Shown one piece after another: positions 1-49,218 of a DNA stretch of 64,000 nucleotides. Position 1 is the first letter of the stretch. Each line of letters starts with the position of its first letter. Origin of the DNA: a virus. The position numbers and the translations under genes are program-made. The stretch covers positions 1 through 64,000 of the IMG/VR virus record IMGVR_UViG_3300028146_000010. The stretch is one strand, 5' to 3'. The notes below the pieces were generated by a model that ran no database searches, was not told the origin of the DNA, and saw nothing but the letters and a program-made list of their open reading frames with translations.

Positions 1-518
1 GCTACGTGCTCATCGCCCTTCTCAACCTTCACGCCAACGAACAACTCACTTCGCGTTGCGGGCATTCGTGAGTAAGACTTGACTCGCGCAGGCTCACCGC
101 GCACATGGTCGTAGGGCTCTACGTCGGGTGTGACAATCGCCCCTGCGGCTATAGTCGCCCCGTGTTTGATGTGAACGCCGGGGAGAATCACAGCTCCGGC
201 CCCGATGCTCACGCCATGCTCAATTCGCGGAGGTTCAGCGATGTAGGATGAATTGCCTGCTCGGGGATGCCGATCATCCGTAAACACGACACCGGGGCCG
301 ATAAATACCCGCTGACCAACGGTGGAATTGGACGGCAGAAACACATGCGCGGATATTCGGGTGTTGTCACCGATAACCGATCCACGTCCGATTTCCGTGC
401 CGCTGCCGATTGAGCAATTCTTGCCAATCTCGACATCCGCTAGCACCGTCGCGTAATGCCAGATAGTCGTGTTTGTGCCGATGATCGCGGACTCGTCGAT
501 GAAGTTAATTGGCTGCAT
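1..518 (-). CDS. hexapeptide-repeat (left-handed beta-helix) sugar acetyltransferase, runs off the left edge
   Basis: Not in ORF track; manual translation from ATG at 518 gives MQPINFIDESAIIGTNTTIWHYATVLADVEIGKNCSIGSGTEIGRGSVIGDNTRI...FIGPGVVFTDDRHP...SIGAGAVILPGVHIKHGATIAAGAIVT, classic hexapeptide repeats. Confidence 0.9.
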   Translation of the reverse strand, partial: MQPINFIDESAIIGTNTTIWHYATVLADVEIGKNCSIGSGTEIGRGSVIGDNTRISAHVFLPSNSTVGQRVFIGPGVVFTDDRHPRAGNSSYIAEPPRIEHGVSIGAGAVILPGVHIKHGATIAAGAIVTPDVEPYDHVRGEPARVKSYSRMPATRSELFVGVKVEKGDEHV

Positions 519-1572
519 AGACCTTCGCTCCGTTCTGTGAAACTTCCACGGTCGGCTTTATCACTTTAATCGGCATGATGTCTCGATCAAGCAAGGACTC
601 GTAAATCTCTTTCATTCCCAACGCGGTTACGCTAATATCGGCCACTTCACGTTTATCAGCACGCGGCTCTGTATCGCCCTTCAGAATCGCAATCATTCGC
701 TTGGCGATCTCTCGCTGATCGCCCTCCTCCACCCAGAACGAGCTGTACGGATTCCCTTTGTAGCTGATCGTCTTACAACCCGTGGCGTTGGCCTCAAGGC
801 TCAAACGGTTGTAATCGCCATAGCGGACTAGCCCGCACATCGCGTCCACGCTTCTGAACACATTCCTGAGTGCCGTGCCGTGAAACGCTAAAGGAGATAC
901 GTGTGCGCCATAACTGGCCCCGTTTGCGTTGATGAACGGGAAGTACCAGCGGTGTTGGTCGTTGGGTAAATAGCACGCATGAAGGCACGCCTCGGGAAGT
1001 TCTTCGTAGACGAAGGGCCATGCGATAAACAAATCCAGCGGACACTTGATCGCGTGACAGTTCTCCGCCGTAAACACGCTAGGATTGCCTGACCATTTAC
1101 CCTCGCTGGGGCCGGGACACCAAAAGTCCTTCTCCACTCCCATCTCGACGTAGTGGACTTTCGTGTTCTTATCCACCATCGTTTGAATGATGGCTTGATG
1201 CCGAGGCCATGAGCTAACTATCGCGTCGGCCTTTTTCAGCCAATGCATAAATAACATCAGTCCGTCTCCGTGGCCGTAACCATGCGCCCCGGACTCAACC
1301 GACGAATGGAAGATATGCTCGATTGTCCCGTGAACCGGAAACACGAGCTTGTATTTCTTTTTGGCAATCTTCTTTATCTCGTTTGGGAAATGGGTATGGG
1401 CCACGAAAATGTCGGCATCGGCGATAGTGTCCAGCGCCTCGGGCGAAGTCTCGTGCATGTTGACTAAATGGGAATCAAGGCCAAGCTTCTGCTCCGCGCC
1501 CACTAACGACTTGGCCGCGTTATGCATACCTGAACCGTTCCACATGGAAATGTGAGCTAGTTTGTAGCTCAT
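505..1572 (-). CDS. glycosyltransferase (GT-B fold, GT4-like)
   Basis: 355 aa; N-terminal SGMHNAAKSLV, HGTIEH, KADAIV, MGVEKDFWCP and C-terminal SLEANATGCKTI resemble GT-B motifs; adjacent to a sugar acetyltransferase. Confidence 0.75.
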   Translation of the reverse strand: MSYKLAHISMWNGSGMHNAAKSLVGAEQKLGLDSHLVNMHETSPEALDTIADADIFVAHTHFPNEIKKIAKKKYKLVFPVHGTIEHIFHSSVESGAHGYGHGDGLMLFMHWLKKADAIVSSWPRHQAIIQTMVDKNTKVHYVEMGVEKDFWCPGPSEGKWSGNPSVFTAENCHAIKCPLDLFIAWPFVYEELPEACLHACYLPNDQHRWYFPFINANGASYGAHVSPLAFHGTALRNVFRSVDAMCGLVRYGDYNRLSLEANATGCKTISYKGNPYSSFWVEEGDQREIAKRMIAILKGDTEPRADKREVADISVTALGMKEIYESLLDRDIMPIKVIKPTVEVSQNGAKVYAAN

Positions 1573-1574
1573 AA

Positions 1575-2252
1575 CTACGCCGAGTTAGCCGTACTCGTGG
1601 TGATCGAAAGCTTGAGCGCCAACGACGTAATTGCGCTGTTGGTCGTGGTCGTCAAGCTGGACGTAACCACCGAATCACTCACAGCTTTGGAATCCGCCAC
1701 GGAGATGTTCAGCGAGTTCGATGCTGCCGCGCTGCTGGTGGTAGTCGTCAGACTGGATATAACCACCGAATCGCTGACGGCTTTGGAATCCGCCGTTGAG
1801 GCCCGCACACCTGCTGAACCCGCAGCGGAGGTCGCGGCAGATGTATTGATAGCATCCGACGTGGTCGCAGAGCGAGCAGTAGAAGCGTTAGTGGCCGCAC
1901 TGTCAGCCTTTGACGATGCCGTAGCAGCTTGGGTAGTAGAGAACTGTGCCGCCACCATCCACGTGCCATCGTTCTGGGTTTCCAACTCTACGGCTTCACT
2001 GGTAGCGGCGAGAGCAGTGCTGAACGTGGCTCCGGCGTTGACGATGGTGAGCGTGTTGCCCGACGTATCATCCGGGCTGATTGCCACAACCAGTCGGTGA
2101 TATGCACCACTGTCCAGATCGTCGTAGATGGTTAGCGTAAAGCCCGCGCTCGTACAGTTAGCAACGACTTGACCCACATTCGGGTCGGTCAGCGAGTAAG
2201 TCGAACTGATATTGATTGTTTGACTCTCACGAGAAATGGAATCTATTGGCAT
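1575..2252 (-). CDS. virion fibre/decoration protein with Ser/Thr/Ala-rich repeat tail
   Basis: N-terminal beta-rich domain resembles the C-terminal domain of 4064..4735; last ~120 aa are about 45% Ser+Thr by hand count. Confidence 0.6.
   Translation of the reverse strand: MPIDSISRESQTINISSTYSLTDPNVGQVVANCTSAGFTLTIYDDLDSGAYHRLVVAISPDDTSGNTLTIVNAGATFSTALAATSEAVELETQNDGTWMVAAQFSTTQAATASSKADSAATNASTARSATTSDAINTSAATSAAGSAGVRASTADSKAVSDSVVISSLTTTTSSAAASNSLNISVADSKAVSDSVVTSSLTTTTNSAITSLALKLSITTSTANSA
1640..1795. repeat. 96-bp-period coding repeat (ADSKAVSDSVVxSSLTTTT twice)
   Basis: aaccaccgaatc...gctttggaatccgcc occurs twice, 96 bp apart. Confidence 0.9.
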
Positions 2253-2274
2253 CGGTGTATCTCCTGTGGTTGTG

Positions 2275-2373
2275 AAAACGAAAAGGCCGCGTCAAGTCGG
2301 TAACAAGGAATTGTCCCTGCTAACGACCTCACGCGGCCCTGCGGACATGCGCCCGCCAAGCTAAGTTGTCAAA
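2275..2373 (-). promoter_or_regulatory. boxA-like 15-mer + small hairpin + long terminator-like hairpin, copy 1
   Basis: TTGACAACTTAGCTT, GCGGGC-GCAT-GTCCGC, then GGCCGCGT...ACGCGGCC followed by TTTTCGTTTT; same layout at 16749..16829. Confidence 0.75.
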
Positions 2374-2832
2374 CTATCCACCAGCACCCGCAGCGGCCCC
2401 TGCTGCTCCTTGCAGTGCAGGCATGATCTTCGCGCTAAACGGCGTCTTGTAACTCCCGGTCTGTGTTCCACTGGAACCTGTCTGCACCAACGGCGGGGCA
2501 GTGAGCGCCGCCAGATACGCATTCTTCTGATAGTTCTGATTGTTCACGTCGTACTGGCCTGCACGAGACTCCTGCCCTGCGGTCTGGTCGATGCTGCGTT
2601 CGCCTGATCGTGTAATCGCATCACGCATCTGCGGGGTGGTGTAACCGCCTGCGGGGTTCAAAAACGAGCGGCGCAATTGAGACTTGGCCTCACCCGCACG
2701 GAAGCCGATGGTTGGGTCAACCTGAAAGTTGGTGCCGCGAAGGGTATCAATATCCGCACTCGACGCGCCGGGTTGTCTCCCGTACGTTGCTGTATTGGTT
2801 GAAGTGCCCTTCTGAGTTTTGGTTGAACTCAT
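2374..2832 (-). CDS. small ejection/pilot-type virion protein
   Basis: Gly/Ala/Thr/Gln-rich with glycine-zipper-like C-terminus; follows GNAT-like gene as in podovirus tail modules. Confidence 0.5.
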   Translation of the reverse strand: MSSTKTQKGTSTNTATYGRQPGASSADIDTLRGTNFQVDPTIGFRAGEAKSQLRRSFLNPAGGYTTPQMRDAITRSGERSIDQTAGQESRAGQYDVNNQNYQKNAYLAALTAPPLVQTGSSGTQTGSYKTPFSAKIMPALQGAAGAAAGAGG

Positions 2833-3277
2833 CTCGTGTTTTCCTCAAGCGTACCCATCGAAAGCGACCTACGCGTTCCTCGATACCATCCCTTTGGAAC
2901 CCGCAGGCTTCAGCCACGCGAATCATACCACAATGTTTATCAATCACCGCAGCAAAAACTTCCGTCGCCCCCCACTGCTCGAAAACCACCCGTTCGATGC
3001 TCATGAGGGCGACCAGTAACACGTCCATGTCGATGCGGCGCTCGCAGTCAAAATGGCATTCATAGACTCCATTGCCATCAGGCCGCAGGGTGACTAACGC
3101 CACCAGTCCGTCAGTGAATATTCCCACGCTCACCCGTCGCTTCATCAGGGCGAACCATTGGCGGAAGTGAGTCAGCGCGTCCCAGCGTCGAACGAGACAA
3201 GGATAGGAATCACGCCAGTGCCAAGCGGTGCGGTAAAGGTGCTCGTCGCGGTCAGGGTGTAGCACTCGGAGTTTCAT
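2747..3277 (-). CDS. GNAT-fold virion assembly protein (P22 gp14/T7 gp13-like position)
   Basis: Probable start MKLRVLHP at 3277; YECHFDC and MIRVAEACGFQRDG match the GNAT C-terminal motif. Confidence 0.6.
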   Translation of the reverse strand: MKLRVLHPDRDEHLYRTAWHWRDSYPCLVRRWDALTHFRQWFALMKRRVSVGIFTDGLVALVTLRPDGNGVYECHFDCERRIDMDVLLVALMSIERVVFEQWGATEVFAAVIDKHCGMIRVAEACGFQRDGIEERVGRFRWVRLRKTRDEFNQNSEGHFNQYSNVRETTRRVECGY

Positions 3278-3278
3278 T

Positions 3279-4079
3279 TTAGTTTTGCTTAAAAACTCGC
3301 CATCGAGCGGTCGTACTGTCATAAACCAAATCTGCCGCCTGATCTGCTGACAGCGTAATATCAGCTCCCGTAGAACACAGGAAACGATTAGTTGCAACGC
3401 TGCCAGTATTTTGATGTTTCAGAACAATGTTATTCGAGCCTGCGTTTACTATAAGATGAACCTCGCCGCTTACATTACCTGACGCTGCGCCTCGTGGCTC
3501 GAAACCGGTAACATCTCGACTGGCGTTGCTAGTCCACCTTTGACAATAAGCAGCCCCCGTATTGTAATCGTTCTGATTTGAGGTAATTTGCGCGGGAGAT
3601 AACACAGGCGATGACCACGTTGCTCCCGCGTTCGCGTTATTGCGAAGACGCAATATGCCGCCATTCGTTATAGCAGCGGCCCCGTCGTCTAGCTTGACTG
3701 CGCTACGAAAGTTTATTGAGCCAGTATTCTGAACTGTATAGTTCGCAAAATTAGCGGTGCCCCACTCATGGGTTGAGTCACCCATGTCCTGCGTACCGCT
3801 TGTGCCAATTGGTTGAAACTTCCCGTTTAGAGATAGAACGTCACTTGCTTTGTCGTAGGTAAGACCCGCATCGCCTCCGAATGCTCCAGAGTCGTTAAAT
3901 TGTACTTGCGTGTTGCTACCACCCGGTGACGTGCTCGCTGCGGTTCCGCTAGTTACGGTTGTCCCGCTGCGTTTGAGAAACTGACCATCGGTAATCCCAG
4001 CAATCGTCAGCGTGGTCGGCCCAGCAGTTTCCTCTATTTTCGTAGCTACGGGAAAGTAACTCATCAGACAATACTCCAT
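3279..4079 (-). CDS. tail fibre/spike protein
   Basis: PGGSNTQVQFNDSGAFGGDAGLTYDK fibre motif; C-terminal LVYDSTTARWRV. Confidence 0.75.
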   Translation of the reverse strand: MEYCLMSYFPVATKIEETAGPTTLTIAGITDGQFLKRSGTTVTSGTAASTSPGGSNTQVQFNDSGAFGGDAGLTYDKASDVLSLNGKFQPIGTSGTQDMGDSTHEWGTANFANYTVQNTGSINFRSAVKLDDGAAAITNGGILRLRNNANAGATWSSPVLSPAQITSNQNDYNTGAAYCQRWTSNASRDVTGFEPRGAASGNVSGEVHLIVNAGSNNIVLKHQNTGSVATNRFLCSTGADITLSADQAADLVYDSTTARWRVFKQN

Positions 4080-4735
4080 TCCGTCCCAGCATTCTTAGGG
4101 ACGATTGAAAAGGACGTGTACTGGATGAAAGTGGTTTGGGTAAGCGCACCGTCAATGGTTTGTGTTCCTGACGCATCCAGCGTTACGAGGTTGGCGGACG
4201 AATCAATCTTCTTGATGTAGTAGACCTTTTGCTTGGCCGTGGTAACGTTGTGGAGGTTGACCGTGACGGCCCCACCGCTTGCGTCTACCAGCAATACATC
4301 GTTCACATCGGTAAGCGAGTAGGGCGAATTAGCGACGGTGATGGTAGTAACATCTAAAGTGGCTGCGGTTGTTGCCGCCCATTTCAACCCGGTTGTTTGC
4401 GCTGAATCTACCGTCAACACTTGACCGTTAGTGCCTACGGGTAATCTAATTCCTAGCGTGCTGCTATGCGTGTACAAGTCACCCTTAGTAGTCAGCGGGC
4501 TAACCAGTGTGATAGTCGCGGGTGAGCTTCCAGCAAACGTAAACCCTGACGTGCCAATACCTGTGAGTTTGATTACGGGGCCAGTGACGGAGATGCCTGT
4601 ATCGACATTAATGGTGGTGATGGCCGTTGTCCCGCCGCCGCTGGAAACGGCCACAGAAATGGAAGGCAGCACACCTCCATAATTGTACCACATTTGAAAT
4701 GGGGCTAAGTCAGGATTATCCAGCTCGTTAGACAT
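4064..4735 (-). CDS. tail fibre protein
   Basis: TTKGDL...RLPVGTNGQVLTVDS...GLKW fibre motif and IKKIDSSANLVTLDASGTQTIDG domain. Confidence 0.75.
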   Translation of the reverse strand: MSNELDNPDLAPFQMWYNYGGVLPSISVAVSSGGGTTAITTINVDTGISVTGPVIKLTGIGTSGFTFAGSSPATITLVSPLTTKGDLYTHSSTLGIRLPVGTNGQVLTVDSAQTTGLKWAATTAATLDVTTITVANSPYSLTDVNDVLLVDASGGAVTVNLHNVTTAKQKVYYIKKIDSSANLVTLDASGTQTIDGALTQTTFIQYTSFSIVPKNAGTEWSIV

Positions 4736-4749
4736 ATAATTTTAGTATG

Positions 4750-4756
4750 GTATAAT
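4750..4756 (+). promoter_or_regulatory. extended -10 promoter for the HNH gene (near-leaderless)
   Basis: TG-G-TATAAT ending 7 nt before ATG 4764. Confidence 0.6.
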
Positions 4757-4763
4757 CATCGCC

Positions 4764-5426
4764 ATGCTTAACTACTTACAAGTACCTTTTCTCAATCGGG
4801 CCTACCTGAAACTCCTCTTTAGCAAAATTGCGATCACTCCGTCTATTTCGTGGAATGGAACATCATGCTGGATTTGGACTGGCCGCACGGATAAGGGATA
4901 CGGATTTTTCCGCTATAAAGCCAGAAGCACGCGAGTTCATCGCCTAATGTTTGCATGGTTAGTTCACCCAATCCCGAGAGGTCGTCAACATGGTGAATTG
5001 GATCATCTGTGTAAGCGTCCGGCTTGCTGTAATCCTATTCACTTGGATTTCGTAACCGCCCAGATTAATTGCCTGCGAAGTAACAGTCCTGCGTCTATTA
5101 ACGCACGAAAAACTCATTGCAAGCACGGCCATCCTCTAAGTGGCGACAATCTACTACTAGAAAGCGGAGGCCGCAAGTGCCGTACGTGTAGAAATAAACG
5201 AGCCGCAGAATACCATCAAAAATATCCCGAAAAACATCGAGAAGCTTGCAACCGATGGTGCAGAAAAAACCGAGAGGCCCGTACCGAGTACCGCCGTCGC
5301 TGGCGCGCAAAGAATCCAAATTACTTCCGAGATTTAATGCGTAAAAAGCGAGCGGCAAATCCAGAGGCGTATAATCTCTACATGCGCGAATATCAAGCTC
5401 GGAAAAAAGCGGAAAGATTGACATAA
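4764..5426 (+). CDS. HNH homing endonuclease, antisense to the tail operon
   Basis: CWIWTG, GYG, HRL, LDHLCKRPACCNPIHL, KTHCKHGH motifs. Confidence 0.9.
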   Translation: MLNYLQVPFLNRAYLKLLFSKIAITPSISWNGTSCWIWTGRTDKGYGFFRYKARSTRVHRLMFAWLVHPIPRGRQHGELDHLCKRPACCNPIHLDFVTAQINCLRSNSPASINARKTHCKHGHPLSGDNLLLESGGRKCRTCRNKRAAEYHQKYPEKHREACNRWCRKNREARTEYRRRWRAKNPNYFRDLMRKKRAANPEAYNLYMREYQARKKAERLT

Positions 5427-5798
5427 TCATCGCACCCTCACCGATGTCACGACTGCATCGGGAAACTGTCCACGTATCGCTGACAGCACTTTCTCCCGCT
5501 CCACTTCTTGAAACGGTCGGCTTTGCAGGGTATGGTTCTTTATGCTGCGCAGCTTTGTGCCCTCTTCATCCACTACCGCCACCCTGCCACTTTCCACGAA
5601 GATGTCATAGCGGAAAAGGGATAGAGGTTCCGGCTCCGGCACGCCCTGCCGCTCAATGGAAATCCGCGCATCGTTACCGTAGAGTTGGCGTAACTTCTCG
5701 ACGGTCAACGGTGCAACTTCACGCGATGGCTCATCCTGCCAAGAAGTCGTCTCTAGCAGACCGCCATCCGCATTGTTGACGTGGAATCGCATTTTCAT
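5427..5798 (-). CDS. hypothetical protein in tail module
   Basis: 123-aa ORF coupled by ATGA overlap to upstream gene. Confidence 0.6.
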   Translation of the reverse strand: MKMRFHVNNADGGLLETTSWQDEPSREVAPLTVEKLRQLYGNDARISIERQGVPEPEPLSLFRYDIFVESGRVAVVDEEGTKLRSIKNHTLQSRPFQEVEREKVLSAIRGQFPDAVVTSVRVR

Positions 5799-6811
5799 CG
5801 GCGAACACCTTGAACTGCTTGCTCTAACGTCAACTCATCTATTCTATCCCTAACGGACTCGCCCGTGTCATTCCCAGATAATCGAATTGTTCCGAGAACA
5901 GCGTTTGGGCAATTAATCTGAATCCGTGGCGATTGCGCTACGCTGGTAGTATCAGAGAGCGCGATTGGCCCGGTGGTGCTGTTAGTCCCATCTTCTAGGT
6001 CACTGATCACTATCGACTCGCCTACGTCGTAAGCATAAGCCCGAAGTTCAGGGTTAGTGAGCTTGCCTGTAGCCCGAAAGGCTTTATAAACCTTACTCCT
6101 TAACTCCTCGCCTGAATCCGAAACAGGCAAAGTCACATACCACGCATTCCCCGGCCCAGCGTCCACGCGCTTACTGTCTGTGCCGCTTCCTGTTGGGGGC
6201 GGTGCGGTGCAATCAGAATTGGTAGTGACTAGAAAGTTGTCAAAGTTTTTAGAGATGGTAGCGAAAAACGAGCCGCTATCACCTGTCAGCCCACAAAGCG
6301 TTCCATAGTTCTGTGGCTGGCCGGTATCATCATAGGTGCCTTGAAGCGTCGTATTGACATAAACCTTGAAAATACTATCGCAGCACGCGCATGAAATTGT
6401 GTCGTTATCGGCAAGGGTGATGCTAAGATCGAGAACAGTTGAGGTCGATCCTGCGTATGTTCGCTGAAGACGTAGTTGATTGGCGGAACCAATAAAACGA
6501 TAGTAGACCAATCGCCAAAAATAATTAGCATCAACGTAACGAAAAACAATCCCTTCACCAATGCCAAAACTTCCCGATCCGGTGGTTGGATTAACCAGCG
6601 TGACTTTCGTGACCGCATTGGTAAGCCCCGATTCAATAACTACTCGCCCATTGGCATCGCCAAAATTCCACGTCCATAACGCCGTGTTGCTGCTGATGCC
6701 GAATGCCCCCGACACCCCTGACACCTGACTCCACGTTTGGCCCGTGGGCGCGGTGCCCAGCGATGTAGGACTATCTGCCCGATTGAAGTTGTCAGAGACG
6801 ATTATTGCCAT
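5795..6811 (-). CDS. lectin/beta-sandwich domain fused to a nozzle-like C-terminal domain
   Basis: DNFNRAD...FDNF flanks a ConA-like domain; after a Pro/Gly linker WYVTLPVSDSGEELRSKVYKAFRATG resembles C-termini of podovirus nozzle proteins. Confidence 0.55.
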   Translation of the reverse strand: MAIIVSDNFNRADSPTSLGTAPTGQTWSQVSGVSGAFGISSNTALWTWNFGDANGRVVIESGLTNAVTKVTLVNPTTGSGSFGIGEGIVFRYVDANYFWRLVYYRFIGSANQLRLQRTYAGSTSTVLDLSITLADNDTISCACCDSIFKVYVNTTLQGTYDDTGQPQNYGTLCGLTGDSGSFFATISKNFDNFLVTTNSDCTAPPPTGSGTDSKRVDAGPGNAWYVTLPVSDSGEELRSKVYKAFRATGKLTNPELRAYAYDVGESIVISDLEDGTNSTTGPIALSDTTSVAQSPRIQINCPNAVLGTIRLSGNDTGESVRDRIDELTLEQAVQGVRR

Positions 6812-6814
6812 TTG

Positions 6815-8521
6815 CTATGTGCGCCTGCCTCCCACCACCAACTCCAGCCTATCACCAATCGTCGCCAGCCCACTCACTATCTGATCCTGATTATCCTCGC
6901 TATACTCACATGCACCGATCCAGTCTTGCTGGGGCAGGCCATAGAGCAGCCCCTGCGTCGTCCAGAATCCCGCGCTGTTGCGTCTCGCCCCGCAGTAGAA
7001 AAACCAGATGCCGTTGTTGTAAGGGTCGTAGCCCACGACTACATGACCGGGACTCCAACTTTGGGTGATAGCGTAGACTCGTGCCGCCCACGCGCGTTCA
7101 GCGTCAATCTCGTCGCCGTCACCCACGCTGCGACTTGGCCCACCATTGGGAAACCCGTAGATCATTCCATTGACAAACACCAATTGATCCGGCCCTGCAA
7201 ACCCATCGTGCCAAAAGGGGCGGATAAGTATCGGCACGGCATCATCGGGCGTGGCTTGGGCAATCTGGAGGTGATTAATGGTGGGTAAATAGATGCGGCC
7301 TTGACCACTTAACGCCCAGAGAATCGTTTCAGGTGGTGAGGATGAGAAGGCTAATTCCAGCGGAGCTGCTTCAATGTTATTCGGCTTACTCGGTACGATA
7401 AATGGCCCCGGTGAAGTCTGGGTAGGATTCGTCGATGCACCCTGCCCTTGGCAACTGAAATACACTGGTGCATTGTTCAAACTGACCACGCCCTCCGCGT
7501 CGGTCGGTGCATCATTGTCAAAACTCACGATCTCATTGACCACAATCTCCGCGTCCAGCCACTCGGTTGTGTACGTCCCGCCACCCGCCGACACATCCGC
7601 CGTGGTAATCATCACCCAGAAGAACCACGGGCCTTGCAGGTAGCCTAGATTAGCCCCTATCGCCGCCACATACGGCGTCACTGCTAGCCACCATGCGTCC
7701 TGACCATTAGCCGTGTCCATCGCAGGCAAGGTGAATTGAACCTTGTCGCCTGTGGCAATGGTTACATCAGCCCGAGGCGAAGGATTGTTGTACCCGCCCG
7801 TTTGGCTTCTCGCGGGCAGAATCACCGCTGAGTACGAACCTGCCTGCATCCCTTTTGTCCCGCCACCGACAGCCGCCAGCGTCGGCGCAGCAGGCGTGTT
7901 CATGCCGAGAGGAAAGTTGGTGTAGGTGTCAGTGGCCGCATCAAACAGGGCGATGGAGGGATGACGAGCCAACGTCCACGAGGCAGACAACGGCTGACCA
8001 TTCAACTGAAACACCCCCGCACCCGCGCCAATGAAACTACCTTTATCCAACGGGTCAACCCCACCCCAGCTAGACGATCCCCGCTGTGCGTTTATCGCGT
8101 ACATCCGGCTCATGCGCCAACCGATAACACCTGATGCTGAACTATCCGGCGCTCGCCACACTTCTATCTCAGTGTCACTAACAACTCGCCTTGCCACCAG
8201 CGGCCATGAGGTTGAATCGTCACTCGCAATGGCAGTTATCTTCTGTCCCAGCCGCACCTCAGAGAAGAACGCCGTACCGACACCCGTGACTGTCGTACTG
8301 TCCACGGTAAGAGTCAACGTTCCAGTCAACGCCACCATATCCAACGGCTCATTTAAGTCACCAAGCCCACTGAATGTTTCCCAGTATTGCGAAGGAGGAA
8401 GGCCGCGTAAGATGAGGTTGTTGAGACGGAAGGCAGAGTTGGATTCATCGCCCGTGAGGGCTACGGTGGGCCAGTAGGGGCCTGCCTTCACTACCCTTGG
8501 TGAGATTTTGCCGCCCATCAA
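6815..8521 (-). CDS. tail nozzle/stabilisation protein, N-terminal part
   Basis: 568 aa beta-propeller-like sequence (SKPNNIEA, VGYDPYNNGIWF) directly after adaptor-like genes. Confidence 0.6.
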   Translation of the reverse strand: MMGGKISPRVVKAGPYWPTVALTGDESNSAFRLNNLILRGLPPSQYWETFSGLGDLNEPLDMVALTGTLTLTVDSTTVTGVGTAFFSEVRLGQKITAIASDDSTSWPLVARRVVSDTEIEVWRAPDSSASGVIGWRMSRMYAINAQRGSSSWGGVDPLDKGSFIGAGAGVFQLNGQPLSASWTLARHPSIALFDAATDTYTNFPLGMNTPAAPTLAAVGGGTKGMQAGSYSAVILPARSQTGGYNNPSPRADVTIATGDKVQFTLPAMDTANGQDAWWLAVTPYVAAIGANLGYLQGPWFFWVMITTADVSAGGGTYTTEWLDAEIVVNEIVSFDNDAPTDAEGVVSLNNAPVYFSCQGQGASTNPTQTSPGPFIVPSKPNNIEAAPLELAFSSSPPETILWALSGQGRIYLPTINHLQIAQATPDDAVPILIRPFWHDGFAGPDQLVFVNGMIYGFPNGGPSRSVGDGDEIDAERAWAARVYAITQSWSPGHVVVGYDPYNNGIWFFYCGARRNSAGFWTTQGLLYGLPQQDWIGACEYSEDNQDQIVSGLATIGDRLELVVGGRRT

Positions 8522-9117
8522 GCATCAGCCTTCGGGTTTGATTGCTTGCTAACCAGTCCACGAATCGCCACGGCTAGTGCGGTAACTAAATCACTGAATA
8601 CTTCAGCTACGACTACAACCGGATCGCTTGCACTCGCAGGCACCTCCGGCACACTGGCAATGGTCAATTCGATGTCACCCGTTAGGCCGCTCGTTGGATC
8701 GTAACTCTGATTCGGTTCAAGATAATGAAAATCATCGTCACCTTTAATCGTCCACCAAGCGTTCTGAGATTCCAGCCCATTGCGAGTCTGAGCGAAATCC
8801 TGCCAATAGGGAACAAGGGACTGATTTTGGGCCACGGTAATATCCGCCGGATCGGAAATTGACGCACCGTACTTACATTGAGTCAACGCCACGTCCGGTA
8901 CAACCCCCACACCGTTCGTGAGAGCTATCGTATGTGTTCGACGTAAGAGACTTCGCCCTTCCTCATCTGCGGCCTTCTGTAGTCCGACATTCTGAAACAC
9001 CGACTGAACCAGCGATTCCATCGTCATGTCGGCATCCAGTAATGCAGACTTCAACTGGTCTATGCCTGTCAAGGCTTGCTGTAGCGCGAGGTCGATTAGT
9101 GTTTGATAAGTTGGCAT
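8518..9117 (-). CDS. head-tail adaptor-like virion protein
   Basis: N-terminal helices, central beta region, C-terminal FSDLVTALAV helix; position. Confidence 0.45.
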   Translation of the reverse strand: MPTYQTLIDLALQQALTGIDQLKSALLDADMTMESLVQSVFQNVGLQKAADEEGRSLLRRTHTIALTNGVGVVPDVALTQCKYGASISDPADITVAQNQSLVPYWQDFAQTRNGLESQNAWWTIKGDDDFHYLEPNQSYDPTSGLTGDIELTIASVPEVPASASDPVVVVAEVFSDLVTALAVAIRGLVSKQSNPKADA

Positions 9118-9118
9118 G

Positions 9119-9850
9119 TCACGCTGCGATTAAACTTGGCCCGGCAACGGCCTGTTCACTCACCGAAGTCAGCCCTTGACGAATACTTTGCTCCACCGCA
9201 TCTGCATAACCACGAAATACATTCGCTTGGGCCATAAACTCGTCGTCACGCACCAACGCACCAATCATGTCATAGCAGATGGCGTTAGCGAGAGAATCGG
9301 GTAAGGGTAAGTCGCCATTCGCCGCCACTAACGCCGCGATGGTATCCCAGCTGAACGTGCAGACCTGAACCACCACGCCATTAGGGCGCGTGTGCGTAAT
9401 TCCATCCCCCGACATCTTGAATCCATAAACCGGAATCACCCATGCGGATGGGTTGTTTAGTCGTCGCCGTATCACCTGATCGGGATACTCCGTGCAAACA
9501 ATCGTCTGATCGTCGGCGTCCAGCACGGAACCGTAGATGCCGACGATCGGATCGCCGTTAGCACCGACTGAAGGCATAGAATCGCCGCTAGCTAAAGTGG
9601 CCGTGACAGTAAATCCGACAAATGACCGCCACGGGTGATTCCCCGTTTCAGCGATCGCATTGGCGTACCGAGCGATGGAGGCGGTTTGTTGATCTAGGTA
9701 AGCAGTGAAAGGAAATATCGTTGACTGAAAATCCGCGCTGGTTAAAGGAAGCGTGGCGTAGGTCAGTTCCAATGCTACCGCCGAAGCGCCAACCAGCGCA
9801 TTGGTTCTGACTGCTGCCTCTCGAAGTATGGTATGTAGCGCAACGCTCAC
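9119..9850 (-). CDS. head-tail adaptor-like virion protein
   Basis: LPLPDSLANAICYDMIG C-terminal adaptor-like motif; position. Confidence 0.5.
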   Translation of the reverse strand: MSVALHTILREAAVRTNALVGASAVALELTYATLPLTSADFQSTIFPFTAYLDQQTASIARYANAIAETGNHPWRSFVGFTVTATLASGDSMPSVGANGDPIVGIYGSVLDADDQTIVCTEYPDQVIRRRLNNPSAWVIPVYGFKMSGDGITHTRPNGVVVQVCTFSWDTIAALVAANGDLPLPDSLANAICYDMIGALVRDDEFMAQANVFRGYADAVEQSIRQGLTSVSEQAVAGPSLIAA

Positions 9851-9851
9851 T

Positions 9852-10607
9852 TCAGCTCCAGTCGTTTACCCTGTCAAATGAACTCTGCCGAATAGTTATA
9901 TGGTCTTGAATCGTATTACGAATGTATCGCTGCCAATCGTCTTCTATGCGAGCACGATCATTCTGAAGCGCAAGGGCGATTTCCTTTCGATGGCTCATGT
10001 TGTAATTTTGATTGTCCGACCATTGGCATGAAGGCAAAACTGATTCAGCAGCCCATATTTCAATCAGAGAATGAAACTGAGAGAGCACCGGATCGGTTTC
10101 TAACGCAGCGCTACTTGCCCAGTCGCCTGAAGCAAAGGTTATTAAATACGATCCAAAAAGTTGCGGCTGTGGTAATACTCTTACCCACCGCGAACCGTCG
10201 TCTCGATAATAAAACGCCATCCTTATGGCGGTATTGGGGCTACCATCCGTGAACAGCATCGAAGCCACATTGACGGGCATACCCCAATCGAAATTTAGAT
10301 CGGCTATCTCGTAAAACTCAACATATCTTTGCGGTAGAGACGGGTTGGCGGGCCAGTAGGTGAGAACCTGAATTGGTTTCCCGTATGAATTATCCAAACT
10401 AAGAAGATAGTCGCTCGTGCCGTTGCTAACATTAAGCGTGTAATCGGGTTTTAAGGCCCACGGCTGGCCTGAGGATTCTAACTGGCTATAGAACGACTGA
10501 ACGCTGTGTTCAACGGCCTGCAAGATGCGACGCGGCGACGGCTTCTGTGCTAAGGGTTCGTCGCACAGTAACCGTGCCGCGCTGCACATGCTCTGGATTG
10601 AAGCCAC
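9852..10607 (-). CDS. head-tail adaptor-like virion protein
   Basis: GTSDYLL, VRVLPQP, DPVLSQFHSLIEIWAA pattern typical of adaptor proteins. Confidence 0.55.
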   Translation of the reverse strand: MASIQSMCSAARLLCDEPLAQKPSPRRILQAVEHSVQSFYSQLESSGQPWALKPDYTLNVSNGTSDYLLSLDNSYGKPIQVLTYWPANPSLPQRYVEFYEIADLNFDWGMPVNVASMLFTDGSPNTAIRMAFYYRDDGSRWVRVLPQPQLFGSYLITFASGDWASSAALETDPVLSQFHSLIEIWAAESVLPSCQWSDNQNYNMSHRKEIALALQNDRARIEDDWQRYIRNTIQDHITIRQSSFDRVNDWS

Positions 10608-10617
10608 GCATTACTCC

Positions 10618-11733
10618 CTACTCAGCCTTTGGGTGAAGCACTTTGCACCAGCGGCCAATGTGGAGACTCTTGGCTGAGGCTTTCATTTCCTCGCCACAGG
10701 CGTCACAGGTGAAGGTACTTGCGGTTTCGGCTGGCGTCTCACTTGGCACGTTCGCGGGAACACTTTGCGCTCCGGCTAACTTCGCTTCCAGTTCCGCGAT
10801 CCTATCCGCATCGGCCTGTCGTGCCAGCGCCAGCCGTTCATCCATCTTCCGCTCGAACAACTCCATGTCAGTAACGCTGATGGATGCGGTAGTGGCCTGT
10901 TGCTGGCTCGCGTTCAGTTGCCCAATCATCTTGGACATTTCCTGCATGGGTTGATCCTGCCTTGGGATTTCGAGTTGCTCAAGCAACATTTCGGTAATCG
11001 GTGAGTACGAATACGACCACCCACCCTGCCATTCGCCCACGTGACCAGTCTTGAGTAGCCCATGCTCCACGTTCACCATTCGCATGGCCCAGTTACGGGC
11101 GTCCGCGCACATAGTCAGACATTCGTTCTTGTACTTGCCGATGTCGATGCGGCTGTCGGTGATAACGGCAGACTTAACCTGCTCCTCTAGGCCGCGTAAC
11201 GTTGGCTCCACGCCATCACCGAACATGGCTGTTTCAATGACATCCAGAATGCCCGTACCCTCATCGTTGTGGCACTCGTCCCATTCCTTGCCAAGTAATA
11301 CCGTGAGTTCGTCGATACCCTTGCGAATTGGGTTCATGGAGTAGCGCCGCAGGACGCGCAGGCCGTCACCGGGGAACACGGGCACGAAACCAAACTTATT
11401 CTTGACCGCATCTTCGTTCAGCGGAATCCCCTGCCATGCGACGGCCTGTAGGTCGCCCAAGTGGCGCATCGGTATCGGCTCACCGCCCAGTTCCAGAATC
11501 GCCGCCCTGCCACGCGGAATAAACCCACGTCCATAGCGAATGAGGCAGGGGTTAGGCGTCTCCTCGCCCCCTACCCGCAGCCAGCTAATCTCCGCCTTGC
11601 GCTCAGGAACGATTAAGTCCAGCGGGTTCCATACCCACCGCACGACGTTCGCGCCGACTACGCGCTTATCAAAAAATCCCACTGGCCCAAAGACTTCGGG
11701 TTTGGCTTGTTGTTGCTCGAAAACTGCGCTCAT
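10618..11733 (-). CDS. hypothetical morphogenesis protein with C-terminal zinc finger
   Basis: 371 aa; CDAC...HIGRWC at the C-terminus. Confidence 0.6.
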   Translation of the reverse strand: MSAVFEQQQAKPEVFGPVGFFDKRVVGANVVRWVWNPLDLIVPERKAEISWLRVGGEETPNPCLIRYGRGFIPRGRAAILELGGEPIPMRHLGDLQAVAWQGIPLNEDAVKNKFGFVPVFPGDGLRVLRRYSMNPIRKGIDELTVLLGKEWDECHNDEGTGILDVIETAMFGDGVEPTLRGLEEQVKSAVITDSRIDIGKYKNECLTMCADARNWAMRMVNVEHGLLKTGHVGEWQGGWSYSYSPITEMLLEQLEIPRQDQPMQEMSKMIGQLNASQQQATTASISVTDMELFERKMDERLALARQADADRIAELEAKLAGAQSVPANVPSETPAETASTFTCDACGEEMKASAKSLHIGRWCKVLHPKAE

Positions 11734-11744
11734 GGTTTCTCCCG

Positions 11745-12677
11745 TTATGCGTAAATTTGTACTTGTGAAGGTCGATGTGCTCGCCGTATTTCCGCCAACT
11801 CGTTCCGCTTCCTCACCTTCTCGTCCTTCATCATCTGCAAGCCCCAGACCTTTGCTTGCTGCAGCGCCACTTCGTCCAGTTCAGGACGGATATGGGGATT
11901 AGTGGCGGCTTCCTTGCTACGCAGGTGAATGGCCTTCTTCAACCATTTCAGCTCCCTACCGTCCGGTTCCTTGTATGTGCCGTAGCAAATCTCTCGTGAT
12001 TTATCCCATGCTCGCTGACAGCACTTATTCGCATGATCGGCAATTATCCCGACGTGCGGCAACATGTTGTACCAACCTTCACGCGGTACTGGCCCCCAGA
12101 CATCTTCGCTGACAGTGCGTAGGAAAGTATCCTGTGAGCAAAACCGACACGCCAACACGTGACCCTCCGACTTATCCGTATCCACCCAATGCACGAACAC
12201 TTTCCCATCATGCACCTGACTCGCATCCCACTTGGCAAACACCGTGATCAATTGATCCACGCTGAACATGCGACCGGGAGTTTTGCAGTAGCGGCACATG
12301 GCAGGTACAGGCTCAACCACCTTCAACCGATACCGTGTGGCTTCCCAGCTTACGGCCAATGCTTCTGGTTCAAACCGCTCCTCAAGTATCCAGCGAGGGG
12401 GCGAAATGTCCACGTAGTCGTCGTTGCCGATGTCGATGGATAGTGCGCGGTATTTCTGCCGCCACTCGCTCTCGGTTGCGTTTCCAAATTCGTCCCACGC
12501 GATATTCTCACGCTTCAAACATTCCCATGCCCATTTCAACTGAACAATGGAATGGCCCGATGGACTGAGGCCGACTATCCGATCAATCTTCCGCTGGTAC
12601 GCTTTCACGTCAAAGCTAGGCTGTTTGAATATCCCCGACGTGGCCCACTTCGTTTGATCGTTGTAAATTTCCAGCAT
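11745..12677 (-). CDS. hypothetical protein with CxxC pairs
   Basis: 310 aa; CRYC and CRFC. Confidence 0.6.
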   Translation of the reverse strand: MLEIYNDQTKWATSGIFKQPSFDVKAYQRKIDRIVGLSPSGHSIVQLKWAWECLKRENIAWDEFGNATESEWRQKYRALSIDIGNDDYVDISPPRWILEERFEPEALAVSWEATRYRLKVVEPVPAMCRYCKTPGRMFSVDQLITVFAKWDASQVHDGKVFVHWVDTDKSEGHVLACRFCSQDTFLRTVSEDVWGPVPREGWYNMLPHVGIIADHANKCCQRAWDKSREICYGTYKEPDGRELKWLKKAIHLRSKEAATNPHIRPELDEVALQQAKVWGLQMMKDEKVRKRNELAEIRRAHRPSQVQIYA

Positions 12678-13452
12678 TTAATTTCGTCGCCAGTACCGCG
12701 CCTTTACGGATCGCGCTATCGGGTCTTATGTTAGGATCACCCCAAGTGTGCGGACACGACCCCAGACTGCCCTTTGCACAGTTACAGTTGTAGCACAAGA
12801 TTTGGTAGTCAGGAGATACCGCATCGCTGGCGAGTCTCGTCCAGATTCGATTTCCCTGATCTGATTTGCGCTCCTGCGCTCCATCATCATTAACATGATC
12901 CAATGTTAGAAAGTAAAACCGAGACTCGCCACAACAGGCGCACTTGTTACCATACTTAGCAATAACCTTTCGGCGCTTTTCTTCCGTCTTATTGCGACCG
13001 CGAATAATGCACTTGTGGCAAGTAAGAATTGTCCACTCGTCCGGGAGATGAAACCCGCAACTAACGCATTGTCGCCTCTCGATTCTGAGATAGCGCAGTC
13101 GAAGTTCCCTTGCTCTTTTAGCCACTTGATGTTCAGCGCATCGGCGCGAACGCGGCGCGTGTGGATTCTCACATAGCGTACAAAGACCGCTATCTCTGCG
13201 GCGTCGCACAAGGTTAAGCGCCCGCGAGCTTTCCTCTTTAGTGCAAGCAACGCACAGCCAGCCACCGCGAGGATTCGGCTCTGCGCATTTAGCGCACTTG
13301 CCCTGCGCCAGTAAAGCTGCACGCCTTTTAGATGCTTTTTGATTTGTAGCACTAAGACAATCTTCACAGCGTTCACGGCTCTCTTTTGGAGTTCCGCCAC
13401 AAAGCGGGCATAAGCCTTGTCTTTTACGACGTTGATAAGTATCTTTATGCAC
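12616..13452 (-). CDS. HNH endonuclease with four N-terminal zinc-ribbon repeats
   Basis: Repeated GxCxxC...CxxC units; CACCGES...LTLDHVND...YQILCYNCNCAKG. Confidence 0.88.
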   Translation of the reverse strand: MHKDTYQRRKRQGLCPLCGGTPKESRERCEDCLSATNQKASKRRAALLAQGKCAKCAEPNPRGGWLCVACTKEESSRALNLVRRRRDSGLCTLCENPHAPRSRRCAEHQVAKRARELRLRYLRIERRQCVSCGFHLPDEWTILTCHKCIIRGRNKTEEKRRKVIAKYGNKCACCGESRFYFLTLDHVNDDGAQERKSDQGNRIWTRLASDAVSPDYQILCYNCNCAKGSLGSCPHTWGDPNIRPDSAIRKGAVLATKLNAGNLQRSNEVGHVGDIQTA

Positions 13453-13457
13453 GTTGG

Positions 13458-13544
13458 ATCAATTCTCCTTAACCGTAGATTGATTCGACCATGCGCCGAG
13501 ACTGTGATAGCAGTCGTCGGCGCTTTCTCGTTGGTCGAATTATA
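13458..13544 (-). promoter_or_regulatory. -10 box and structured 5' leader of the HNH gene
   Basis: TATAAT then nested stems TTCGACCA/TGGTCGAA, GCGCCGA/TCGGCGC, GACTG/CAGTC and ATCAAT/ATTGAT around AAGGAG. Confidence 0.65.
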
Positions 13545-13570
13545 CATCTTCACGTGCATGGTTACTAGAC

Positions 13571-13906
13571 TTAACTAGCAGTTTGCGCTCCAATAATCAC
13601 CCACTTATTCGCGCTGGCCGGGCCATAGCGAATGCAGTAGGCGGTACAACTAGACGTGCCAAGCGTATACGTTGCGCCGTTGGCTATGATCGTAATTGCA
13701 CTTCTCGCGGTGGCCCCATCCTGTGCGGTGATGACAACCGGTGAATTACTCGTCGCTGCGAGCGTGAACGCTATCGTATTCCCGCCAGCAATGACTACGT
13801 TGGTAACGGAATCAATGGTTTGGCTAGTTGTCGGGTTGATGACCACGCAACCAACCGAACCAATGCCATCGCTGACGATGAAAGGATTAGTGATATTGTT
13901 TCCCAT
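13571..13906 (-). CDS. capsid decoration/cement protein
   Basis: 111-aa beta-rich protein immediately after the major capsid gene with strong RBS GGAGG. Confidence 0.55.
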   Translation of the reverse strand: MGNNITNPFIVSDGIGSVGCVVINPTTSQTIDSVTNVVIAGGNTIAFTLAATSNSPVVITAQDGATARSAITIIANGATYTLGTSSCTAYCIRYGPASANKWVIIGAQTAS

Positions 13907-13920
13907 GTTTCATTTCCTCC

Positions 13921-15198
13921 TTACAGCCCAGCGGTGATCTGAGTTGCGTACCCGAGTTGAGCGCGTTTGATGAAAGCGGAGCCACGGCCACTGAGGGTCG
14001 CAGGGTTGCCTTTCCATCCCACAGCAGATTGCCAGTTATCGCTTCCGGTCTGGTTTGCGCCCAGCAACATACGAGACTCAAGTCCATCGCGGTTATATTT
14101 TCCGTACGGTTTCATCTCGTAGATTTTGTAGTCGGAAGTCTTCAGGAAATACACCCGATCCTCGTCCATGTCGCTGTCGCAGATAAAACGAGTATCGCCA
14201 TCGGTGTAGTCACCCTGCACGCCCTTCATGGTGTCGCTGCCAGCATCTTCGCGGAGATAGTAGCCAAGGTTGTAGCCCTGCTTGCGAACGGTGGAGTATT
14301 GGCCCCACGTGATGAATGCGGTCAGGTTGTTCTTGGCATCGGTGGCATTGTTACGGGTTTGGAGCAACGCTTTCGCGTTCTCAATGGCTGCCGGGGTAAG
14401 CAACGCACCTGCGAGGTCAACCACGGGGGCATTGAGGTCGGTGTAAACGCTGGTGTCCAGCCCTTGCAACACACGGTTCTGGTCGCTGTCGAGCCAGCCA
14501 ATACCACGCATGGCAAGCTGATAGCTGCCCTGAATGACGATGGGGTCGCCGGATGAAATGGTGCCACTCAGCACATTCACCGTCGCAGACGACGTACCTG
14601 CGGTGGTCACGACAAACGTGCCCCGCACCGCACCCGTTGAAGCGTTGATGCCTTGATACGTCTCGCCTTCCCACAGCCACATGGTGCCTTTGGTCTGACC
14701 GGGGGTAGTGGCAGCGGTTGTGGTGCCTGCAAGGGATTGTGAACCCAGCGCAGTTGTGGTGGTTGCCGAGTACGCCACCGCGCCATTACCAGTGCCATAG
14801 AAATACTGGTTCATGCGCTTGCGAAACGTCTCGGTGTACTGCACCATCACCTGATCGTAGGATTGAACGTTATCTTCCGTGTCGTTCTCCATTGATTCGA
14901 TGGTGCTGCCTGCCCAAATCATCGGCCATGCGCTCATGGTCGGATAGACCCACATGCTCACGGTCTGCGGCCCGTTGGCCTGATTGAAGTCTGAATTATC
15001 CGGCGTGAACCATGTCATGCCAGTCGGACGGCGTGCGTAGTCGGGAAGGCGATAGCCCTTTTCGGTAAGTTTCGGTTTATCCACCGCCTTACCAAATGCC
15101 CTCATGCCCGGATCATTGTTCTCGTAGAACATCCGAACATCCTTCTCTACCGCTTGCCGCTTGAGATCGGTAATTTCACTGAATTGAACTGCTCCCAT
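13921..15198 (-). CDS. major capsid protein (HK97 fold)
   Basis: 425 aa after scaffold; FRKRMNQYFYGTGNGAVA backbone-helix motif, DEDRVYFL, WKGNPAT. Confidence 0.85.
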   Translation of the reverse strand: MGAVQFSEITDLKRQAVEKDVRMFYENNDPGMRAFGKAVDKPKLTEKGYRLPDYARRPTGMTWFTPDNSDFNQANGPQTVSMWVYPTMSAWPMIWAGSTIESMENDTEDNVQSYDQVMVQYTETFRKRMNQYFYGTGNGAVAYSATTTTALGSQSLAGTTTAATTPGQTKGTMWLWEGETYQGINASTGAVRGTFVVTTAGTSSATVNVLSGTISSGDPIVIQGSYQLAMRGIGWLDSDQNRVLQGLDTSVYTDLNAPVVDLAGALLTPAAIENAKALLQTRNNATDAKNNLTAFITWGQYSTVRKQGYNLGYYLREDAGSDTMKGVQGDYTDGDTRFICDSDMDEDRVYFLKTSDYKIYEMKPYGKYNRDGLESRMLLGANQTGSDNWQSAVGWKGNPATLSGRGSAFIKRAQLGYATQITAGL

Positions 15199-15208
15199 AG
15201 CGTCTCCT

Positions 15209-16729: not shown

Positions 16730-16748
16730 AATGTTTTACGGCCCAATG

Positions 16749-16829
16749 AAAAAGCCGCATCGATCTAACAGCGAACTGTTAAACCCATGCGGCCCTTCCC
16801 ACATTCGCGGGATAAAGCTAAGTTGTCAA
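16749..16829 (-). promoter_or_regulatory. boxA-like 15-mer + small hairpin + long terminator-like hairpin, copy 2
   Basis: TTGACAACTTAGCTT, TCCCGC-GAAT-GTGGGA, GCCGCAT...TAACAG-TTCG-CTGTTA...ATGCGGC-TTTTT. Confidence 0.75.
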
Positions 16830-17006
16830 CTCACTTGTTAATCTATTTAACTTAGCGACAGCAGAGCAGTCTCCACACACGGCCAATCGCTTACCGTTCG
16901 TCGGTAACTGCAAGATTATTTCCACCGAACGCAACTGCCTACACCCAAAACAAGTCGCCTCAACATGGTCAGCGCAGAAAATAACCTTAATCCGTTGCGC
17001 GTTCAC
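16818..17006 (-). CDS. small zinc-ribbon protein
   Basis: CFGC and CGDC; start overlaps the upstream stop. Confidence 0.5.
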   Translation of the reverse strand: MNAQRIKVIFCADHVEATCFGCRQLRSVEIILQLPTNGKRLAVCGDCSAVAKLNRLTSELTT

Positions 17007-17205
17007 GATACCCTCACAAACTCAGACTGTACTTCATTTCGCTGGCTTTTTACAATAGCAATCTTCTCTCGCGCTATCCGTCGCTCAAGGAAAGTCACCG
17101 TTTCACGGATGCTATGCAAAAGCTTTTCAGCTTCAGACAAATCAGAATGCCGAGCAAGGTGCTGTAGCGTCAGCTTCGTCCGTGCCATTTCTAGGCTTGA
17201 TTCCA

Positions 17206-17514
17206 TTAGGCAGCCTTTTCGTGGCGCTCCATATGACATGGCCGACATAGCCATTCAACCAAGCGCGGGTTACTGTAATCAGGATGGTGCATTTGCGATT
17301 TATCGCTGCCACAATCAGCGCAAGGCTCTTTAATTAACTTTCCCCGTTTTAAGAGCACCGCTGAATAGCTGCGGCACCGATCTTTTACCTTTTGCGTCTC
17401 CGTGAGCGGATGGGTCTTACGCCAATTTCGTACATAAGCAGCCTTGCACTTGCGACAGTACCTATGAACCAATTCTCGCGGGCCACGGCACGCCGAACAA
17501 ATCCGTAATTTCAT
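17206..17514 (-). CDS. small HNH-type protein
   Basis: CADCG...HHPDYSNPRLVEWLCRPCHMERH; own TG-G-TAGAAT -10 box 6 nt upstream of ATG. Confidence 0.8.
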   Translation of the reverse strand: MKLRICSACRGPRELVHRYCRKCKAAYVRNWRKTHPLTETQKVKDRCRSYSAVLLKRGKLIKEPCADCGSDKSQMHHPDYSNPRLVEWLCRPCHMERHEKAA

Positions 17515-17568
17515 TCCTTAATTCTACCAGATTCGTTGTTACTGTAGAACTTTTTTTAACGGGTTCCA

Positions 17569-32225: not shown

Positions 32226-32229
32226 AGCG

Positions 32230-43397: not shown

Positions 43398-43435
43398 CTG
43401 CCTTGTTAGTCAAGTCACTGGTCTGGAGGGCAATA

Positions 43436-47774: not shown

Positions 47775-47785
47775 CAGCTAAGTCC

Positions 47786-48709: not shown

Positions 48710-48712
48710 ACG

Positions 48713-49211: not shown

Positions 49212-49218
49212 GGTTGGC

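Follow-up and report, generated by a model that had tools for sequence, protein, structure and literature searches.

A conserved two-hairpin RNA element with terminator-type features before the capsid gene block of uncultured soil phages

Phages that use the host RNA polymerase and carry 50-kb late units must pass or set internal stop signals and, to our knowledge, few of the systems involved are understood, namely N, Q, put and conAn. In the nut sites of lambda-type phages, protein binds to the loop of the boxB hairpin, and a given phage keeps this loop the same at both of its sites. Other intercistronic signals are the RNase III sites of phages T7 and SP82, helices some two turns long in which an internal loop separates the lower from the upper stem; processing at these sites leaves protective hairpins at the message ends. 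Generally, an RNase III signal is a helix of at least about 20 bp, in which an internal loop often guides the cut. According to the accessible part of PMC3177189, the boxA core bound by NusB-NusE comprises 8 nt. The stems of intrinsic terminators average 7–8 bp in E. coli and 9 ± 2 bp in B. subtilis, as given in the available portion of PMC10325885. The same portion reports that stems longer than about 14 bp gave a terminator resistance to conAn antitermination and that imperfect stems made no difference for TerR, the long terminator of plasmid pLS20.

The stretch analyzed here (the window) consists of bases 1–64000 of an IMG/VR phage record of 72,991 bp, rated 100% complete and denoted G000. 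On the minus strand, ORF screening located the small terminase (42156–42719) and the large terminase (22904–24877). The portal (17569–20241) and an HNH nuclease (17206–17514), also on the minus strand, lie ahead of the first of two element copies, copy a. On its 3′ side follow a 506-aa protein, a 425-aa capsid-like protein and tail-fibre-like proteins, and then copy b. A gene block including the capsid genes follows the element; the first-pass annotation had considered a leader for high-copy virion proteins as one of two readings. The same annotation had put copy b before a glycosylation cassette; of the genes behind copy b, only ORF 3–518 has a family match, to a hexapeptide acyltransferase, and ORFs 1575–2252 and 505–1572 have none. 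These unknown ORFs and the acyltransferase lie 3′ of copy b, and the block runs over the record end to about 59.5 kb. The plus-strand arm (42858–58494) begins with an HTH_3 protein and contains recombination genes. The N terminus of a 2373-aa ORF (25152–32273, minus strand) holds an SLT lytic transglycosylase domain; this ORF also has a weak stretch resembling ParB_N, gave no PHROG match and probably encodes an internal virion protein that is ejected. The tRNA search found none.

No RNA polymerase, sigma factor, antiterminator or RNA-binding family was detected among the approximately 70 ORF translations screened. Since canonical TTGACA-N16-18-TAnnnT promoters are present in the early arm and no phage RNA polymerase was found, the phage most likely depends on the host sigma-70 polymerase. 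Two near-identical promoters on the minus strand, 41913–41884 and 40727–40697 (TTGACA-N18/19 with an extended TGTAGGATG −10), open the minus-strand arm and flank a second HTH_3 gene (41005–41391). The best sigma-70-type promoter within 1–20000 is on the plus strand at 4729–4756 (TAGACA-16-TATAAT with TG, 11/12); it drives a lone plus-strand ORF of 220 aa (4764–5426) inside the minus-strand late block, a moron-like layout. A strong hairpin of 13 pairs with a U tract (13493–13523, plus strand, −22.2 kcal/mol) lies inside ORF 12906–13559 and is antisense to the late genes.

Both copies of the element are on the minus strand, copy b at 2372–2273 and copy a at 16829–16743, and all parts of the two-copy composite that had been described are present. 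The order is a single-stranded motif, a 6-bp hairpin, a long hairpin on an AGGGCCG base, a U tract and a start codon (Table 1). The 15-mer is identical at both sites and is followed in each case by a 6-bp hairpin; the two small stems are unrelated, with pairing kept by compensatory changes. The long hairpin opened by AGGGCCG and the U tract occur at both copies. In copy b, the long hairpin consists of a lower stem of about 10 bp, a G·G mismatch, an upper stem and a CAAU loop. The corresponding hairpin of copy a has a lower stem of 10 bp, a G·G mismatch, an upper stem of 10 bp and a UUCG loop. Copy a also contains a downstream duplicate of the 5′ arm, GGGCCGTA (16744–16737), able to base-pair with the 3′ arm (H3). 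No Shine-Dalgarno sequence was found before ATG 16729 of the scaffold-position gene behind copy a; strong ones, by contrast, precede the capsid-like gene (AAAGGAG) and a number of further late genes. A 62-aa ORF on the minus strand (16818–17006) shows CxxC...CxxC with zinc-ribbon-like spacing, and its stop is the TAG of the copy a 15-mer. It is confined to G000, apart from possible remnants in G001, and has no Pfam match. The gene directly behind copy b contains a 66-nt direct repeat (1633–1698 and 1729–1794, 85% identity, 96-nt spacing).

Table 1. Coordinates of the element parts and of the adjacent genes in the window.
Feature	Position	Strand	Remarks
Copy b 15-mer, TTGACAACTTAGCTT	2372–2358	−	Starts 1 nt past the TAG of ORF 2374–2832
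Copy b small hairpin, GCGGGC-GCAT-GTCCGC (6 bp, 4-nt loop)	2356–2341	−	G before, A after
Copy b long two-part hairpin (56 nt)	2339–2284	−	24 pairs, −40.7 kcal/mol
Copy b U tract, TTTCGTTTTC	2283–2273	−	Then AGGAG Shine-Dalgarno and ATG 2252 (ORF 1575–2252)
225-aa gene directly behind copy b	1575–2252	−	Internal 96-nt repeat; without family match
Copy a 15-mer, identical to that of copy b	16829–16815	−	Then TA
Copy a small hairpin, TCCCGC-GAAT-GTGGGA (6 bp including one G·U)	16812–16797	−	
Copy a long two-part hairpin (46 nt)	16796–16751	−	−27.6 kcal/mol
Copy a U tract and leader, TTTTTCATT	16752–16730	−	Then ATG 16729
506-aa scaffold-position gene behind copy a	15209–16729	−	Without family match
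425-aa capsid-like gene	13921–15198	−	Next after the scaffold-position gene
Small ORF upstream of copy a (family A)	17003–17254	−	Candidate partner only

The exact 15-mer has two sites in the 72,991-bp record, with none further even at two mismatches, and no other site that could serve as a trans antisense partner was found on either strand at up to three mismatches. By estimate, about two exact direct 15-mer repeats are expected by chance in 64 kb, and many short repeats are present. A shuffle test at up to three mismatches was uninformative (mean of 1.6 matches; 49 of 100 shuffles reached two). Since a lone repeated 15-mer lies within chance, the case rests on the composite structure, its register in relatives and covariation. 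RNAfold gave −54.0 kcal/mol for copy b (z −6.8) and −41.9 kcal/mol for copy a (z −4.3), and none of 200 shuffles of either copy folded as stably. On the minus strand of G000, the only two sites passing a strict hairpin-plus-U scan were copies a and b, which also made up two of the four sites passing a looser filter.

The RNAalifold consensus of six group I copies (the group is defined below) contains 30 pairs, 20 of which show two-sided changes. Paired cells amount to 94.7%, compared with 71.1% (sd 2.7) after shuffling, and none of 500 shuffles reached 94.7%; slid-alignment controls gave 35–51%. In the small hairpin, all six pairs show two-sided changes across the six copies. G·U or U·G pairs account for 29 of the 169 paired cells (about 17%) and would read A·C on the other strand; thus, the structure belongs to the sense RNA. 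The U tract after the hairpin is likewise found on the minus strand only, in 15/15 full copies. The proposal of a repeated, strand-specific cis-RNA element is therefore borne out by the covariation, the G·U pairs and a U tract confined to the sense strand.

Relatives were collected through the capsid-like protein and comprise 11 further IMG/VR records (54–95% identity) and metagenome fragments. The clade is one of uncultured soil phages. No cultured relative was found by megablast of 1–20000 or by tblastn of the capsid-like and portal proteins against a phage collection, and capsid protein alignment revealed no prophage relative in bacterial genome contigs. Eleven of the 12 related records show this architecture ahead of the scaffold-like and capsid genes, G012 being the one without it; a clear second copy is present in three (G000, G001 and G002). 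These genomes fall into groups. Group I comprises G000–G003 (G003 being a 72% fragment) and, loosely, G010, with the motif TTGAYAAYTTARSYT, which is the form of the copy b motif kept in G001–G003, and the AGGGCCG stem base. Group II is formed by G005–G008, with a YTGACA.../GAATAGSC motif and a TGCCAYTG stem base. In G009 and G011 the first hairpin is larger, the spacer measures 15 nt and the base reads AGGCCG. The motif is more alike within than between genomes (AACCT in both copies of G001), while the adjoining small hairpins are unrelated. Copy b follows ORF 2374–2832 in G000 but precedes the homologue of that ORF in G001 and G002, indicating that the unit moves relative to genes.

A covariance model (R1) built from six training copies found exactly two copies each in G000 and G001 and recovered copies outside the training set: G002b (E 1e-5), the truncated L084 (6e-7) and G010a (0.003); G011a (E 0.21) was not significant. 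R1 detected nothing else in G000 and no group II copies. Further homologues with covariation, whose absence would have spoken against the element, do exist. Rfam 15 gave no match at the gathering score over the whole window, and a permissive scan of both loci returned only unrelated eukaryotic families at chance level (E 0.5 and 2.8). With the anatomy, conservation, covariation, strand and terminator-type features described here, the element is a real, conserved and structured sense RNA that is new relative to Rfam.

A small ORF lies upstream of the a-copy in all 11 element-carrying genomes, and its family tracks the motif class: family A in G000–G003 and family B in G005–G008. This association may be mere linkage. 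The small ORFs have no family match, and an Atlas search gave only short helical look-alikes. A possible extra copy in G005 (3671–3632, minus strand) contains TTGATAACTGAATATC, a 15-pair hairpin with a U·U mismatch and a U tract; it precedes an RNase-H-like gene in a region without similarity to G000. In G011 (15147–14963, minus strand; the same as L095 ~1330–1510), the motif TTGACAATTTAAG comes directly after an 18-pair hairpin and U5. It lies about 100 nt before the larger first hairpin and a 32-pair terminator, suggesting that the element is stretched out. A search of bacterial genomes with the DNA pattern yielded 26 matches in unrelated taxa, none combining the small hairpin, the long hairpin and the U tract, and a 3-mismatch search with the group II motif remained at control level. 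L014 was rejected as a copy, being a chance match inside a coding region.

The long hairpin has a common plan, with a lower stem of 7–11 bp, a 1×1 mismatch, an upper stem of 8–15 bp and a tight loop. Among 15 copies, the interruption is G·G in 11, U·U in two and a 1-nt bulge in one, and one copy is uninterrupted. The G·G mismatch sits one helical turn above the stem base, and its 5′ side is usually G-A-G. A scan of 12 genomes for the two-part shape gave 17 matches, seven with G·G, all of which are known copies; shuffled genomes gave about one match and 0.3 G·G per set. The G·G-marked long hairpin is thus a new feature and a usable signature. Its stem of 14–25 pairs (n = 15 copies) exceeds ordinary terminators and falls in the range of TerR-type long terminators (more than about 14 bp), so that resistance to antitermination is predicted at most. 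In all 15 copies, a G+C-rich stem base stands directly before a U-rich tract on the transcribed strand, as in intrinsic terminators. Since only 12–30 nt separate the U tract from the ATG, the downstream genes need read-through.

One explanation, which we consider quite unlikely, is a strong unregulated terminator or insulator with translation stops, possibly resistant to antitermination, at which transcription from upstream would be shortened or terminated. Conservation of the motif would then mainly reflect the stop codons that it places ahead of the hairpin in two or three frames, and the unit might double as a common junction at which phages exchange modules. Indeed, the TGA and TAG/TAA of the motif are the actual stops of the upstream ORFs in G000a, G001b, G002b and G003a, and stops in all three frames are present in G005a and G008a. 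The resistance conferred by long stems in the available portion of PMC10325885 and the changing place of copy b among G000, G001 and G002 also fit. However, stop codons leave the 15-nt identity, the covarying small hairpin and the G·G mismatch unexplained, and the scaffold and capsid genes would be shut off by a strong unconditional terminator that lies 12–30 nt ahead of them and leaves no space for a promoter.

The helix also invites a reading as an RNA processing or stability module, in which RNase III would cut the 20–26 bp helix with its 1×1 mismatch, or RNase E the A/U-rich motif. The small hairpin would cap the 3′ end of the upstream message and the freed 3′ arm with H3 the 5′ end of the scaffold/capsid message, so that segments of one long late transcript would get different lifetimes, as at T7 RNase III sites. 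The shape of the long hairpin fits an RNase III signal, at which cutting would be predicted: it has 14–25 pairs, with a symmetric interruption 7–11 bp above the base in 13 of the 15 copies. Pairing of the 3′ arm and U tract with the downstream duplicate of the 5′ arm, H3, exceeded shuffles in seven of the 13 a-copies (shuffle fraction ≤0.03; Fisher p ~2e-7 across a-copies, the copies being related). Moreover, pairing is all that the small hairpin requires, and the site precedes the capsid gene block. Against processing, the U tract in 15/15 copies points to termination rather than cleavage, H3 pairing above shuffles is missing from all four b-copies, and RNase III needs no conserved 15-nt motif. 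We regard processing as possible but somewhat improbable.

The motif contains a perfect TTGACA in five of the seven group I copies and TTGATA in the other two. The spacing from this hexamer to GGGCCG is 27–30 nt, so that a standard start would fall on GGG. These features suggest a late promoter whose leader contains a terminator, comparable to lambda pR′-tR′, in which TTGACA would serve as the −35 and a phage factor would replace the −10. Transcription would begin on the leading G's of the long hairpin and yield an RNA of about 60 nt or, with antitermination, run into the late genes. An A at the A-11 position of the −10 place in five of the seven copies (GAATGT, GAATAT, GAATAC, GAATGC and GAGTTC) agrees with this, as do the perfect TTGACA in early promoters of the same phage and the G011 motif behind a hairpin and U5, the usual terminator-then-promoter order. 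A bacterial look-alike in a Pelomicrobium MAG contig (L113, minus strand ~7216–7100; TTGACAATTTAAGCT-N-GAGTAT) is an ordinary TTGACA-N17-GAGTAT promoter, which also favors a promoter; it stands before a bacteriocin-like small GG-leader peptide gene and an ABC-transporter-like gene and is unrelated to the phage.

Yet a sigma-70-type promoter scan of 1–20000 called neither site. The −35 matches the sigma-70 consensus, but no −10 follows it, the best hexamers sharing only two or three of six positions with TATAAT; the earlier statement that this is not a plain promoter is therefore upheld. In several copies the −10 region is G+C-rich or unrelated (AGTCGA in G002a, CGCCCC in G007a), and in group II TTGACA is changed to CTGACA or TTCACA or is lost. 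In addition, the covarying, G·U-containing small hairpin covers exactly the promoter spacer and the −10 place, where it would be useless to promoter DNA. Transcripts begun at the element would still hold the whole terminator; the idea that they lack its base was rejected because a standard start keeps the whole G-C stem. Given the missing −10, the loss of TTGACA in group II and the covarying hairpin, an RNA signal ranks above a promoter, and we consider the latter rather unlikely. Nevertheless, a purely RNA-based reading leaves the perfect TTGACA and its fixed 27–30 nt spacing unaccounted for. A gene for a short hairpin RNA (~55–65 nt) that starts from the TTGACA site and acts as a decoy or regulator via its G·G-marked helix would match the outline of promoter-like hexamer, hairpin and U tract and the conserved G·G site. 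It is highly improbable, since the helix sequences differ wholly between copies and genomes and leave no common target, a −10 is missing, and the element always sits tightly between two same-strand genes.

The first-pass annotation had also suggested a nut-like boxA/boxB site and a comparison of the 15-mer with the boxA of rRNA leaders. Membership of the nut family is not supported. The boxA region of the E. coli rrsH leader reads TGCTCTTTAACAA, and its core is absent from the phage motif, which starts at TTGA, is preceded by variable letters (GAG, GGA, CGC, AGT, CCT and GTT) and has no GCTC. The stretch after the boxA core in rrsH matches the G002a/G003a form of the motif at 12 of 15 positions, a likeness noted post hoc. 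A hybrid of core and motif gave four matches in 301 Pseudomonadota genomes, against seven for the control, none beside 16S, in a phylum that may not be the host's; boxA-like patterns in five genomes were also at control level. The loops of the small hairpin differ even within one genome: GCAT and GAAT in G000, AGTC and TTGAGTT in G002, GTGAATA and GAA/GGAAT in G001, with unrelated stems. Hence the small hairpin is not a specific protein site of the boxB type and, with the boxA core absent, the element is not a lambda-type nut site; its sites, moreover, lie in the late region. No N-like arginine-rich antiterminator was recognized by family matching among the approximately 70 ORF translations, although such proteins are small and diverge fast.

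Our tentative first choice, still held at well under even confidence, is that the element is a regulated terminator or antitermination checkpoint between late gene blocks, read by a phage-specific factor. It would be a module in a long late transcription unit of the host RNA polymerase, made of a motif with stop codons, a hairpin of any sequence and a long terminator. Polymerase coming from the terminase and portal genes (copy a) or the tail genes (copy b) would halt at the hairpin and U tract, and would pass only after the factor, reading the nascent motif and small hairpin, had modified it. After read-through, the hairpin would remain beside the ribosome-binding region of the downstream message. 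Here, termination, its relief and the existence of a trans factor are what we infer. The motif, identical in both G000 copies while the adjoining hairpins are unrelated, suggests a sequence-specific reader.

Several points count against such a gate. The conAn resistance of long stems in the accessible part of PMC10325885 implies that such hairpins are hard to bypass, no antiterminator is recognized, a clear second copy is present in only three of the 12 genomes, and placing a barrier ahead of the proteins needed in the greatest amounts is an uncommon arrangement. A more specific form of the checkpoint, peculiar to this new clade, is unlikely: the G·G-marked terminator would part terminase and portal from scaffold and capsid, and a co-evolving protein of about 65–80 aa from the upstream ORF would open it by reading the upstream motif on the nascent RNA, so that capsid would be made only once portal had accumulated. 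If true, it would be unrelated to N, Q, put or conAn.

As a gate, the element would add a new system of antitermination or attenuation and could serve in synthetic circuits as a compact control part. As a processing site, it would illustrate how the capsid messages are separated off from a single long transcript. Either way, the G·G-marked long hairpin offers a new signature for annotating metagenomic phage genomes. Its anatomy of a motif, a sequence-free hairpin and a G·G mismatch in an extra-long terminator is clear and testable, in a clade without a cultured relative.

Among known systems, TerR of pLS20 (PMC10325885, available portion) shares a stem far above the usual 7–11 bp, 15 bp in TerR and 14–25 pairs here. 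However, TerR ends an operon, whereas essential genes begin 12–30 nt behind the phage hairpin, and TerR, as described in that portion, has no counterpart to the conserved upstream motif, the small hairpin and the G·G mismatch. The phage element also differs from the RNase III sites of T7 and SP82 in its single G·G mismatch, constant U tract and conserved upstream motif. Lambda pR′-tR′ with Q likewise places a terminator that needs to be overridden just before the late genes, and HK022 put RNA likewise consists of two adjacent stem-loops acting in cis (both from the accessible parts of PMC9388147 and PMC9378689). Yet, compared with the systems as outlined there, the phage element lacks a functional-looking −10 and no Q family protein was found; its second stem-loop is a terminator, which that of put is not, and Rfam gave no match. 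As in nut, the nascent RNA would carry an unpaired motif and, a short spacer further on, a small hairpin; both lie upstream of a terminator, and there are two sites per genome. By analogy, the element may plausibly work like the lambda nut/N system, although it lies in the late genes, has both sites on one strand and abuts an intrinsic rather than a Rho-dependent terminator.
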